IMG/VR virus record: IMGVR_UViG_3300034082_002867
Coordinates: 8,042 to 72,041 of that record
Origin: a virus
Lineage: Duplodnaviria > Caudoviricetes
Direction: 5' to 3' (one strand)
DNA length: 64,000 nt
Made by a program: the position numbers and the translations under genes. Shown piece by piece: positions 17,916 through 20,279 of the stretch. How positions within the stretch are numbered: position 1 is the stretch's first letter; the number at the start of each line of letters is the position of its first letter. Under the pieces are notes generated by a model. The model saw only the letters and a program-made list of their open reading frames with translations, ran no database searches and was not told where the DNA came from.

Positions 17916-18128
17916 CTATATAAAATAAAAAAGACCTTTAGAGTTATAAACTACTATTTTAATTTTAGTTTCATTGATCCTGTTTGAGCCAAGTATGTCA
18001 GTCACTTGAAAAGGGTCTGGAGTGGGGCTTATTGGAGCGGCCATAACTCTATCTTTTACTTTATATATATCTAAATTAGTATCAACAATACTTGGATGGT
18101 ATTGTCTTGTTAAAGGTGCCATTTTCAT
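17916..18128 (-). CDS. hypothetical protein
   Basis: ORF track. Confidence 0.45.
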   Translation of the reverse strand: MKMAPLTRQYHPSIVDTNLDIYKVKDRVMAAPISPTPDPFQVTDILGSNRINETKIKIVVYNSKGLFYFI

Positions 18129-19897
18129 ATTGTTTTAGGTGTTGATTCTGTTTTTTTAACCCTAGAAGTTGGAAACGCTTTGTTTCCAAAGTCAGATGCG
18201 TATAAGCTATATAATCTCATAATAACTCCATGTTTAACAGTAACGTCGCCAAGATCTTCGACTAATACATAATTTGGCCTATCGTATTTAGCTACAACAT
18301 CAGAACTAACTAATAAATGATTAGTTTCTCCTGAATCCATTACTCTTTGTGCATAATTAATTCCATCACCACTAATGTTTAAATTGCCATTGATATCTTC
18401 AAGCGGGCAAACATCGCCACAATGAATACCCATTCTCATTTCTAAATCTGGTCTATTTTTTACAGCTTTTGCTACGGTAATGCCACAATTGATAGCGTCT
18501 TCAAGATAAGTAAAAAATCCGAGAATCATTCCATCTCCTGTCGGTAGAACGATTAATTTTTCAAGTGCGTTTGCGGTTTTAAATTGTATAGTTGATTTAA
18601 CTATTTCGCCCAAATCTTTAAAGCATTTTCTCTGCTCATCAGTGGTTTTTTTACTATATCCAACTATGTCCATGAAAAAAATATAGCCATCTTGTATTTT
18701 GTCCAATTCAAGACGACTAGATTTAACTTCAGCATCAATAGCTGCTACTTGATTTATTATTTTTTTAAGTGGTTTCGGAGCTTCGACTTTTTTAACTTCT
18801 TCGATTTTCTTTTCTTCGACGACTTTGTTTTTGCTTTTTAAAAATTCTTTCCAGTTGATTGTTTTTTTATCTTTTTTCTTTGGATCTTTTGCGACTTCTT
18901 CTTCGTGTATTTTTTTTAATTTATCTTCTTCTTCATTTCTTTTATCAATATAAGCTTGCATTTGTTTTTTAAATTCTTCGCTGATGTGAATTGTAACGTC
19001 TTTACCGTTGCCTCCATTGTCGATTTTTTTCTTTCTTGCCGCTCCTTTTAATTGAAGCAGTGTTTGCATTTTAATATTGCCGGTTTTAAAAGCCAAATCT
19101 AATGGAGCTATTTCGCCTTTAAAATCCGCTCCATTAACATTAGCTCCTAAACATATCAAAAACTCGACCATTTCTATATCGTTAGCGTTAACGGCATAAT
19201 GAATAGGCATCCATCCATTTTTTTCATCCCTACCGTTTATGCGACCATCAACATCAAAATACTTTTGAACACCTTCAAAATCTCCTGTTTCAGCACAAAA
19301 ATGAAGGCTTGAACCACCAGAAGATTTTGCGCCAGCTTTAGTTAATATTCTTACTATTTCGCCTCTATTACCTAAAGCTAATACGTCTATTGGATTATTC
19401 TTTCCTAAGAAGTCTTTAGCGTTAACATCTGCACCTTTGATTAATAAATATTCTACAAGATGTTTTTGTCCGTAGTGAGCCGCGTAATGCAGAGCGGTCC
19501 AGCCTTTTGCGGCATCAACTTCATTTAAAGTATGTCCTTTGTTCAACATCTCTTCGATAGAGACTATATCTCCATTTTTAGCGGCTAAATGAAAACTGCT
19601 ACCACTGCCGTATTTTGCGCCACGTTTTTGAAGAGTATCAACAATTGATAAAAACCCTTTTTGTTCTGCAATATCAAGTGCTGTATTTTTACTTGTCCAG
19701 TCTTTACAATTAACATCAGCACCATGATTCAATAATAATTCAACAATTTCTTTATTGTTTTCTGACACGGCTACGATAAGAGGAGGGTTGCCGGTATCCT
19801 CATCTCTTTCGTTTATATTAACTTTATCTTTAACTATGCAATTGTAGACATTATCATATAAATTGCGGCGGATATGAGTGAAAATATTAATTGCCAT
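18125..19897 (-). CDS. ankyrin-repeat protein fused to a class III nucleotidyl cyclase
   Basis: About 8 ankyrin repeats (e.g. GWTALHYAAHYG..GADVNAKD), K/E-rich linker, cyclase motifs FFMDIVGYS, PTGDG, RMGIHCGDV, GINYAQRV. Confidence 0.9.
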   Translation of the reverse strand: MAINIFTHIRRNLYDNVYNCIVKDKVNINERDEDTGNPPLIVAVSENNKEIVELLLNHGADVNCKDWTSKNTALDIAEQKGFLSIVDTLQKRGAKYGSGSSFHLAAKNGDIVSIEEMLNKGHTLNEVDAAKGWTALHYAAHYGQKHLVEYLLIKGADVNAKDFLGKNNPIDVLALGNRGEIVRILTKAGAKSSGGSSLHFCAETGDFEGVQKYFDVDGRINGRDEKNGWMPIHYAVNANDIEMVEFLICLGANVNGADFKGEIAPLDLAFKTGNIKMQTLLQLKGAARKKKIDNGGNGKDVTIHISEEFKKQMQAYIDKRNEEEDKLKKIHEEEVAKDPKKKDKKTINWKEFLKSKNKVVEEKKIEEVKKVEAPKPLKKIINQVAAIDAEVKSSRLELDKIQDGYIFFMDIVGYSKKTTDEQRKCFKDLGEIVKSTIQFKTANALEKLIVLPTGDGMILGFFTYLEDAINCGITVAKAVKNRPDLEMRMGIHCGDVCPLEDINGNLNISGDGINYAQRVMDSGETNHLLVSSDVVAKYDRPNYVLVEDLGDVTVKHGVIMRLYSLYASDFGNKAFPTSRVKKTESTPKTI

Positions 19898-19898
19898 T

Positions 19899-20279
19899 TT
19901 AGTCTTGCTTTTTAAATCTACTTAGATCTAAGTTAGCAAGAGGCTTTTCAATATTTAATGATGCTAGTCTTTCGTTTTGGACGACTAGTTTGCTGCCGCC
20001 CAAAACCTTTCCGTCAACAACATCGTATATGAAGAATACGGTCTTTGTTAAACCCACTCTAACTATTCTTCCAGGTTTACCATCTACATAAACGACATCA
20101 TCTTCTTTATAATCATTTCCAACAAACATGAATAAAGCTGCGGCAAGTTTTTCGATACTAGACTTAAACATTAATGCTACAAGTCCAATAATAAATAACC
20201 AAACATATTTGCCGGTCAAATCTTGACCAGTTGATTCTAATACTTGTTGTGATATAACGTGTGCGTCGTTTGTGTTCAT
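19899..20279 (-). CDS. truncated MscS-like protein (TM helix plus beta domain)
   Basis: Hydrophobic N-terminal half, then YKEDDVVYVDGKPGRIVRVGLTKTVF. Confidence 0.6.
   Translation of the reverse strand: MNTNDAHVISQQVLESTGQDLTGKYVWLFIIGLVALMFKSSIEKLAAALFMFVGNDYKEDDVVYVDGKPGRIVRVGLTKTVFFIYDVVDGKVLGGSKLVVQNERLASLNIEKPLANLDLSRFKKQD

Follow-up and report, generated by a model that had tools for sequence, protein, structure and literature searches.

The subject of this study is a gene of an uncultured large lake-water phage, known from a 64,000-nucleotide (nt) stretch of the IMG/VR record IMGVR_UViG_3300034082_002867 (positions 8,042 to 72,041 of that record; hereafter the window). The gene, which we term Ank-CHD (18125-19897, minus strand, as for all the features of the window given below), encodes a protein of 590 amino acids (aa) in which ankyrin repeats are joined by a charged linker to a class III cyclase homology domain (CHD). 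It is a real, well-conserved phage accessory cyclase, and it lies in an island of cyclic-nucleotide genes. By its fold and its catalytic residues, the protein belongs to the class III cyclase superfamily; its cyclase is apparently active and probably supplies the infected cell with a cyclic-nucleotide signal. The explanation that we favour, with moderate confidence, is that of a soluble class III cyclase retained for a long time as a phage accessory gene, the product of which acts on host receptors. A first-pass annotation, made from the letters of the window alone, had proposed that this cyclase is coupled to an MscS-like membrane protein, msc126, encoded immediately upstream, in a manner reminiscent of the Pycsar anti-phage systems. 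The phage cyclase, its ankyrin input and the clustering of cyclic-nucleotide genes were borne out by the analysis below, whereas the Pycsar analogy and the obligate coupling to the MscS-like protein were not.

The architecture of the protein is based on Pfam and on the comparison of 121 homologues. The N-terminal region (aa 1-291; 19025-19897) consists of tandem 33-aa ankyrin repeats and is matched by Pfam Ank, Ank_2 and Ank_4 at E values of 1e-26 to 1e-36; in the 590-aa protein as a whole, Ank is found at E 2.9e-36 and Ank_2 at E 7.5e-36 over residues 1-290. About nine repeats, arranged as three triplets, can be counted by eye, so the first-pass figure of about eight was a fair one. Many invariant columns in this region are common to the phage copies and their cellular orthologues. 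It is followed by a K/E-rich linker (aa 292-400; 18698-19024), which is the least constrained part of the protein, and by the CHD (aa 401-590; 18128-18697). Pfam Guanylate_cyc (PF00211) scores 22.6 bits on the whole protein and 26.1 bits on the C-terminal 200 aa alone, which passes narrowly the curated cut-off of 21.9 bits. A profile of the CHD and its relatives matched solved structures at E 3e-12 (3mr7) and 1e-9 (Rv1900c). The AlphaFold model of the domain has a mean predicted local distance difference test (pLDDT) score of 92.6, and the top 50 matches in a Foldseek comparison with the PDB are all class III cyclases, with E values down to 1.4e-11 and TM-scores up to 0.82.

The motifs MDIVG, LPTGDG and NYAQR can be read in the CHD. 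In alignments with 1ybt and 3mr7, D410 and D455 correspond to the two metal-binding Asp sites, and N514 and R518 to the transition-state Asn/Arg pair, as had been proposed from the motifs (MDIVG and TGDG for the metal ligands, NYAQR for the N..R pair), which align with the catalytic residues of Rv1900c (1ybt) and 3mr7. In the same alignments, the base-selecting positions hold L451 in place of Lys and N507 in place of Asp; the missing purine-selecting Lys had already been noticed, and its paired Asp proves to be replaced as well. The canonical base-selecting pairs (Lys/Asp for ATP, Glu/Cys-type for GTP) are thus absent, which leaves membership in class III possible. D410, D455, N514, R518, L451, N507 and K555-H556 are all invariant in the 121 Ank-CHD sequences.

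The gene is also under strong constraint. With the L009 copy as the reference, for which synonymous sites are unsaturated, the ratio of nonsynonymous to synonymous substitution rates (dN/dS) is 0.043 for the whole of Ank-CHD, 0.025 for the ankyrin part and 0.057 for the cyclase part, while values for the linker range from about 0.06 to 0.24 (0.062 against L009). The low ratios of the gene and of its ankyrin and cyclase parts argue for a working gene in which both domains matter. Together, the fold, the invariant residues and the dN/dS values are consistent with what the first-pass annotation had described, namely, a probably active phage-borne cyclase, with ankyrin repeats as its input and a base preference that cannot be predicted.

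The replacement of the Lys/Asp pair by Leu/Asn characterizes an entire subfamily. A HMMER scan of 1.8 billion representative proteins returned 528 clusters at E<1e-30; among the 149 best matches, the signature LPTGDG ... N-x-AGxGIN-x-AQRVMD ... VKHG is nearly fixed, and the base-selecting positions are occupied by Leu in 129 and by Asn in 146. The catalytic residues are also invariant across the subfamily, in which the cyclase domain is found with TPR arrays, Ser/Thr kinases, a pPIWI-associated nuclease domain or ankyrin repeats. The phage domain has 40-49% identity to its members and shares all their strongly conserved residues, including Leu/Asn, the Gln before the Arg, and the Lys-His; it differs in that they are cellular signalling proteins (CHD-TPR, kinase-CHD-TPR and Ank-CHD), and it departs from them at a few positions. 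Two NCBIfam models, TIGR04510 and TIGR03903, match subfamily members, but far below their cut-offs. Leu/Asn is the norm of the subfamily and, hence, no pointer to pyrimidine cyclases of the Pycsar type. The product is not readable from the sequence.

Comparison with class III enzymes of known structure gives a similar picture. The IIIc-like soluble bacterial cyclases, namely, the CHD of Rv1900c/LipJ (1ybt and 1ybu), Ma1120 (4wp9) and 3mr7, all have the same fold as the phage domain (TM-score 0.7-0.8) and the same metal-binding Asp pair, and the Asn/Arg pair of 3mr7 is also that of the phage cyclase. However, Rv1900c, Ma1120 and 3mr7 are only 20-25% identical to the phage cyclase, in which Leu451/Asn507 replaces the Lys/Asp pair; moreover, the phage protein has an N-terminal ankyrin domain where those cyclases have alpha/beta-hydrolase or other regulatory domains. 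XC_0250, a CHD-TPR guanylate cyclase from Xanthomonas (PMC3770947), was considered as a biochemical anchor and rejected, given that it is without the Asn/Arg pair and has another Asp spacing; it probably lies outside the Leu/Asn subfamily on a different branch. The DUF2652 cyclase-like proteins (PMC4886424) appear to be another family.

Chromosomal orthologues of Ank-CHD are present in metagenome-assembled genomes (MAGs) of freshwater Verrucomicrobiota, where they lie in DNA of 62-65% GC; the 71% identity extends over the whole protein and takes in the linker. These orthologues have the same length and architecture as the phage copy but differ from it in GC content (62% as opposed to 34% in the phage) and in having no MscS-like neighbour. 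Their own neighbourhood is conserved: LigA or MreB is followed by Ank-CHD, an FGE-sulfatase, an HDOD protein and a pentapeptide/Ion_trans_2 (K+-channel-like) protein; in one deeper cellular branch, Ank-CHD adjoins glutamate synthase genes. The amino-acid composition splits the family cleanly into a high-GC (cellular) set and a low-GC (phage) set. In a maximum-likelihood tree, 18 phage representatives form a single clade (SH-aLRT 98), which is sister to 13 cellular sequences, with one further cellular sequence at the base. This topology points to one exchange between phage and cells, after which the gene was inherited vertically for a long time within the phage lineage. The direction of the transfer is not polarised by the tree because the outgroup, a marine Ank-CHD clade, is phage-borne and because the basal cellular sequence is on a long branch. 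The phage gene is, at any rate, not the recent passenger among host cyclases that the first-pass annotation had allowed for: the phage copies form one strongly conserved clade.

As candidates for the host, the Verrucomicrobiota that hold these orthologues are a poor compositional match, with 62% GC as against 33% GC in the phage. The MAG labels attached to phage-like contigs disagree with one another and include Fonsibacter, Verrucomicrobiota, Solirubrobacterales and Gammaproteobacteria. For example, a contig of 3656 bp (L172; CAUYTX010000179.1), filed as Gammaproteobacteria bacterium strain CCP3-SC1AL1, contains an Ank-CHD of the phage type at 34.5% GC and probably represents phage DNA that was placed in a bacterial bin. 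The label 'Candidatus Fonsibacter ubiquis' on one msc126 protein is likely to be due to the same mis-binning.

The stretch after msc126 is a mosaic of five blocks, for which seven layouts were seen. The blocks are Ank-CHD itself, a small gene termed dn70, a gene for an outer-membrane-protein (OMP)-like product together with a membrane sensor cyclase, a gene for an HD-domain protein (258 aa), and a pair of genes for small membrane proteins. Among the layouts, one has Ank-CHD together with both the second cyclase and the HD-domain protein, one has the second cyclase but no Ank-CHD, and one has the HD-domain protein alone; the layout of the window is the simplest, and the second cassette is absent from it. 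This three-gene cassette was observed directly after msc126 or Ank-CHD at L090:6384-9246 and also in L129, L136, L137, L014, L022 and L043-L046. Its first gene encodes a 213-aa OMP-like protein with a signal peptide; its second, a membrane sensor of 483 aa that has a canonical class III cyclase (KFIGDA; Guanylate_cyc 92.8 bits); and its third, the 258-aa HD-domain protein, which has a weak match to the Npun_R2479 HD family and which could be a phosphodiesterase for cyclic nucleotide monophosphates (cNMPs). The right border of the variable island is marked by dn73 (17621-17842), which encodes a small, holin-like coiled-coil protein with a C-terminal transmembrane (TM) segment (phrog_5225, E 7e-6) and which flanks the island in L090 too. 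That two unrelated cyclases and a possible nucleotide hydrolase are grouped at one site is what speaks most strongly for cyclic-nucleotide signalling by these phages. The broader idea of such signalling, already present in the first-pass annotation, is thus strengthened by the cyclase and HD-domain genes that cluster at this site in sister phages; a receiver role for msc126 is not implied.

As to what might receive the signal, no PF00027 (cNMP-binding) protein was found in either of two related contigs, G002 (174.5 kb) and G003, both of which are 100% complete according to CheckV; the genome size of this freshwater lineage is around 175 kb. On this result, any signal would have to be received by proteins of the host or by a receptor that has escaped recognition. 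Proteins that bind cNMPs are numerous in the Verrucomicrobiota MAGs from which the orthologues come, and some of them are MscS channels to which a cNMP-binding domain is fused. Two of these, in 530-aa open reading frames at G006:C213:3777-4676 and G007:C219:13141-14043, combine an MscS beta-domain with a cNMP-binding domain and are channels of the bCNG (bacterial cyclic-nucleotide-gated) type. Such fused proteins show only that receivers of this kind exist in nature.

The product of msc126 (19899-20279) is a mini-MscS membrane protein of 126 aa, with a TM3-like helix and a beta-domain. Both open reading frames had been correctly placed on the minus strand in the first-pass annotation, and the 1-nt gap between them was verified: the stop codon of msc126 occupies 19899-19901, and the ATG of Ank-CHD is at 19897. 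The evidence from Pfam for an MscS beta-domain is weak, since MS_channel_2nd, the sole family matched at E up to 10, has an E value of 0.036, which is below the cut-off; it is, though, the top family in 20 of 20 members of the msc126 family. Homology was shown by hhalign against a profile of the TM3b and beta-domain region built from seven bacterial MscS genes: the match covers residues 34-81 in register, with a probability of 91% and an E value of 1e-6, which upholds the earlier description of a TM plus MscS-beta-domain gene. The same profile is matched at E 5e-8 by marine msc-like homologues, in which the IPN motif of MscS survives as 'VPN'. The model of msc126 (pLDDT 64.6) has a long helix at residues 11-53 followed by four strands. 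A VIA fold search with it was non-discriminating (Z 4.3-5.9), with many SH3/Tudor-like matches and with MscS entries at Z 4.3-5.5, and no MscS entry was retrieved when the msc126 profile was searched against PDB sequences. The gene is strongly constrained, with a dN/dS of 0.044, and its family comprises 1197 clusters; the nearest ESM Atlas clusters are all viral.

MscS channels are heptamers with a TM1-TM2 paddle, TM3a and TM3b helices, and beta and alpha/beta cage subdomains, while bCNG channels are MscS-like with a C-terminal cNMP-binding domain (PMC13591265). The 126-aa protein has the TM3 pore helix and the beta-domain, being homologous to TM3b and the beta-domain of MscS, but lacks, in its predicted structure, the TM1-TM2 tension paddle and the alpha/beta cage, and it ends about 25 aa past the beta-domain. 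A cNMP-binding domain is also missing, no such Pfam match having been found at E up to 10. A search for longer forms of msc126 returned only two, both on contigs of about 1 kb and one of them an HlyD-like chimera, so that no credible fused form is at hand. The members of the family seen are all viral, and msc126 is not a bCNG channel. In marine phages, two divergently oriented mini-MscS paralogues (105 and 148 aa) are encoded side by side at L215:4839-5156(-) and 5213-5659(+), and also in L212.

The relationship between the two genes can be judged from their distribution. Ank-CHD and msc126 are adjacent in 65 of the 71 freshwater loci that could be evaluated; such adjacency counts come from related contigs and do not represent independent events. 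In three loci, from at least two freshwater contigs, Ank-CHD is instead 13-15 kb from msc126, and in one type of contig two membrane-protein genes are inserted between them. The relocated Ank-CHD in L058 lies behind its own terminator-like hairpin and an AT-rich leader. There, dn70, which adjoins Ank-CHD in 64 of 78 loci, has moved with it, whereas dn70 is absent from the relocated copy in L015. The downstream neighbour of the relocated Ank-CHD is a gene for a 474-aa protein with an Amidoligase_2 domain (E 3.5e-6), which in L058 (L058:3903-5327) comes after dn70. Of about 24 marine msc-like loci flanked by 5 kb or more on either side, only 5 contain a cyclase of the subfamily. Moreover, a 144-kb genome (90% complete) with an msc-like gene has no subfamily cyclase, and the reverse is true of a 119-kb contig (59% complete), where the cyclase is present and an msc-like gene is not. 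In our reading, the msc-like gene is a widespread phage gene in its own right, and the cyclase is cargo in a variable region beside it. The tie between Ank-CHD and msc126 is therefore suggestive but facultative, and they are not a proven pair. The synteny that the first-pass annotation had wished to see checked holds in part, the two genes being often neighbours within phages but never in cells, where the Verrucomicrobiota chromosomal orthologues stand without an MscS-like gene beside them. The idea that Ank-CHD is obligately coupled to msc126 must be given up in view of the relocated copies, these neighbour-free orthologues, and an msc-like family that is much wider than the cyclase.

Expression may nevertheless link the genes in the window. 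A GTGTAA box (20303-20308), a candidate promoter element, lies 23 nt upstream of the msc126 start, and the same hexamer is found 8 nt before up319, the gene upstream of msc126, and 8 nt before dn73; its total in the window is at the chance level. None precedes Ank-CHD or dn70 (17916-18128), a 70-aa open reading frame with no family matches, the start of which overlaps the Ank-CHD stop. Since neither gene has intergenic space or a box before it, co-transcription of msc126, Ank-CHD and dn70 in the window phage, with the GTGTAA box as a candidate promoter element, is plausible.

The proposed likeness to Pycsar was examined with the PycC models of PADLOC, none of which matched Ank-CHD at E up to 1. 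In Pycsar, the effector has a cNMP-binding domain fused to a TM or TIR domain (PMC11224242). What the phage locus shares with Pycsar and Pucsar is a class III-type cyclase gene adjoining a gene for a small membrane protein; it differs from them in that the cyclase falls outside the PycC clade, the membrane protein is no cNMP-binding effector, the genes are separable, and the locus is encoded by a phage rather than in a host defence island. A Pycsar or Pucsar system made up of Ank-CHD and msc126 is, thus, not supported, and the Leu/Asn pair, a subfamily norm, is no Pycsar signature. Among phage cyclases, adenylate cyclases have been described in T8SS (type VIII secretion system)/curli gene clusters of pelagiphages (PMC9599517). 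These are likewise auxiliary genes of aquatic phages, but their context is one of CsgF/G, a histidine kinase and FecR, and ankyrin is unmentioned in that paper (0 occurrences). No paper was found in the literature on ankyrin-fused phage cyclases or on the mini-MscS family.

In the explanation that we favour, the cyclase domain would dimerise head to tail, like class III enzymes, and would make a 3',5'-cyclic nucleotide, most likely cAMP, with cGMP or a nucleotide with another base possible. The ankyrin domain and the charged linker would set this activity via a protein partner. Since the related phage genomes are without a cNMP-binding protein, the product would act on host receptors and would alter host physiology during infection. 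The gene would share one ancestor with the Verrucomicrobiota chromosomal orthologues, and its adjacency to msc126 would be a matter of island location and shared expression, with co-transcription probable in the window, rather than that of an obligate enzyme-effector pair. Several points weigh against this explanation. The phage copy departs from the subfamily consensus at His-to-Tyr, Pro-to-Asp and Trp-to-Pro positions; no biochemical study of the Leu/Asn subfamily was found in the literature, so that both the activity and the product of the phage cyclase are inferred; and host receptors are assumed. A further point is the linkage in the marine clade, in which Ank-CHD is about 32% identical to the freshwater protein and the msc-like gene is 35-37% identical. 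There, 7 of 10 loci have an msc-like gene no more than 8 kb from Ank-CHD; in L216 it is directly upstream of Ank-CHD, with an 8-nt gap and between different flanks (PhoH-like and sigma-like). Such linkage would exceed what is expected for a random position.

This recurrence in a distant clade and in another context is the kind of evidence that favours a true two-gene module, in which the cyclic nucleotide, or the ankyrin-cyclase itself, would control the mini-MscS and, by altering membrane permeability, would govern lysis timing, superinfection exclusion or abortive infection, as might be envisaged by comparison with Pycsar/Pucsar and bCNG. Such a module would also be in line with the 1-nt gap that leaves no promoter space between the genes, with the predominance of adjacency in the freshwater loci, with the position of the second cyclase and the HD-domain protein directly after msc126 in sister phages, and with the existence of MscS proteins fused to cNMP-binding domains (PMC13591265), the orthologue-holding Verrucomicrobiota MAGs included. 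We regard it as unlikely because msc126 has neither a cNMP-binding domain, even in a longer fused form, nor the TM1-TM2 and alpha/beta cage parts of real MscS channels, because each gene is found without the other, because the contigs behind the adjacency counts are related, and because no Pycsar model matches. A different possibility is that the cyclase domain is a pseudo-enzyme, a nucleotide-binding module or the maker of a non-canonical product, and that the protein acts chiefly through its ankyrin domain, which would bind or sequester a host protein. The Leu/Asn replacement in an uncharacterised subfamily, the Pfam match of only 22.6 bits that covers only the C-terminal half, and the ankyrin domain as the most constrained part (dN/dS 0.025) would be in keeping with this. 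However, pseudo-enzymes usually lose catalytic residues, whereas here every one is invariant across the phage copies, the cellular copies and the subfamily. Moreover, cyclases with other non-Lys/Asp pairs, such as Rv1900c, are active, as is also indicated by PDB entry titles. We therefore consider a pseudo-enzyme, or one of its variants, to be distinctly unlikely.

A role in counter-defence, in which the cyclase would flood the cell with a cyclic nucleotide as a decoy and so jam or pre-empt Pycsar/Pucsar immunity, seems very improbable to us. It is true that cNMP signalling is a known battleground, that decoy nucleotides are known on the host side (Panoptes) and that the HD-domain protein of the island might degrade nucleotides. 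There is, however, no direct evidence for such a role; making the alarm signal of the host would normally be expected to trigger the defence rather than to block it, and the cellular orthologues are in ordinary chromosomal contexts rather than in defence islands.

The remaining genes around the island and in the rest of the window complete the description. Upstream of msc126, up319 (20366-21325) encodes a lipoprotein-like product in which an LTGC lipobox, a long coiled coil and, at about residues 190-240, a hydrophobic block can be recognised; its C-terminal tail is conserved. Throughout the freshwater clade up319 accompanies msc126 on the upstream side, the synteny being kept in nearly all the freshwater loci, and no homologues were found in GenBank phages. 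Beyond dn73, omp235 (16863-17570) encodes a product that has a signal peptide and a likeness to outer-membrane beta-barrels (OMP_b-brl, a weak match at E 0.008), and a homologue with 34% identity is encoded near the marine Ank-CHD in L209. With up319, the holin-like dn73 and omp235, the region resembles an envelope or lysis gene cluster. In marine contigs (L161:2561-4211(-)), the neighbours of Ank-CHD to within about 1-3 kb include genes for a P-II protein and for an ammonium transporter; these are probably phage auxiliary nitrogen genes.

The gene content of the window includes rIIA/rIIB, a ClpC-like ATPase, a DnaE-type polymerase, a DnaB-like helicase, a UvsX-like recombinase and ribonucleotide reductase. 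Its replication region (28897-30045, 30256-32664 and 32661-35213) contains the ClpC-like ATPase (phrog_4871, E 1e-209) and the DnaE-type polymerase, adjoining which is a 382-aa open reading frame without a PHROG match. One virion protein is 65% identical to cyanophage proteins, and the DnaE of the window is, at best, 26% identical to those of cultured phages. Near-identical contigs are present in IMG/VR. In GenBank phages, zero matches were obtained by megablast with the locus and by tblastn with msc126, up319, the marine msc-like protein and the marine cyclase domain, while tblastn with the whole cyclase protein gave ankyrin matches only. The phage of the window has no close cultured relative among them.

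A more far-reaching view, which we offer as a speculation and hold to be rather improbable, is that these aquatic phages possess a cyclic-nucleotide circuit of their own, encoded in a modular island comprising the ankyrin cyclase, the periplasmic-sensor cyclase and the HD-domain hydrolase. Its output would be membrane permeability, with the mini-MscS co-assembling with, or mimicking, host channels of the MscS or bCNG type. If so, the phage could time lysis or exclude competitors via a cNMP signal, and the Leu/Asn subfamily might also make a non-canonical nucleotide. Whether or not this speculation is right, the mini-MscS is of interest in its own right as a phage-only minimal version of a channel family. 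The Leu/Asn-pocket subfamily is very large, and a result on the activity of a single member would annotate thousands of proteins. Cyclic nucleotides are central to bacterial anti-phage immunity, where they are almost always host signals. That widespread, uncultured, large aquatic phages keep a cyclase of their own under strong selection, and that their sisters hold up to two cyclases and an HD-domain protein, suggests that phages also write cyclic-nucleotide signals.

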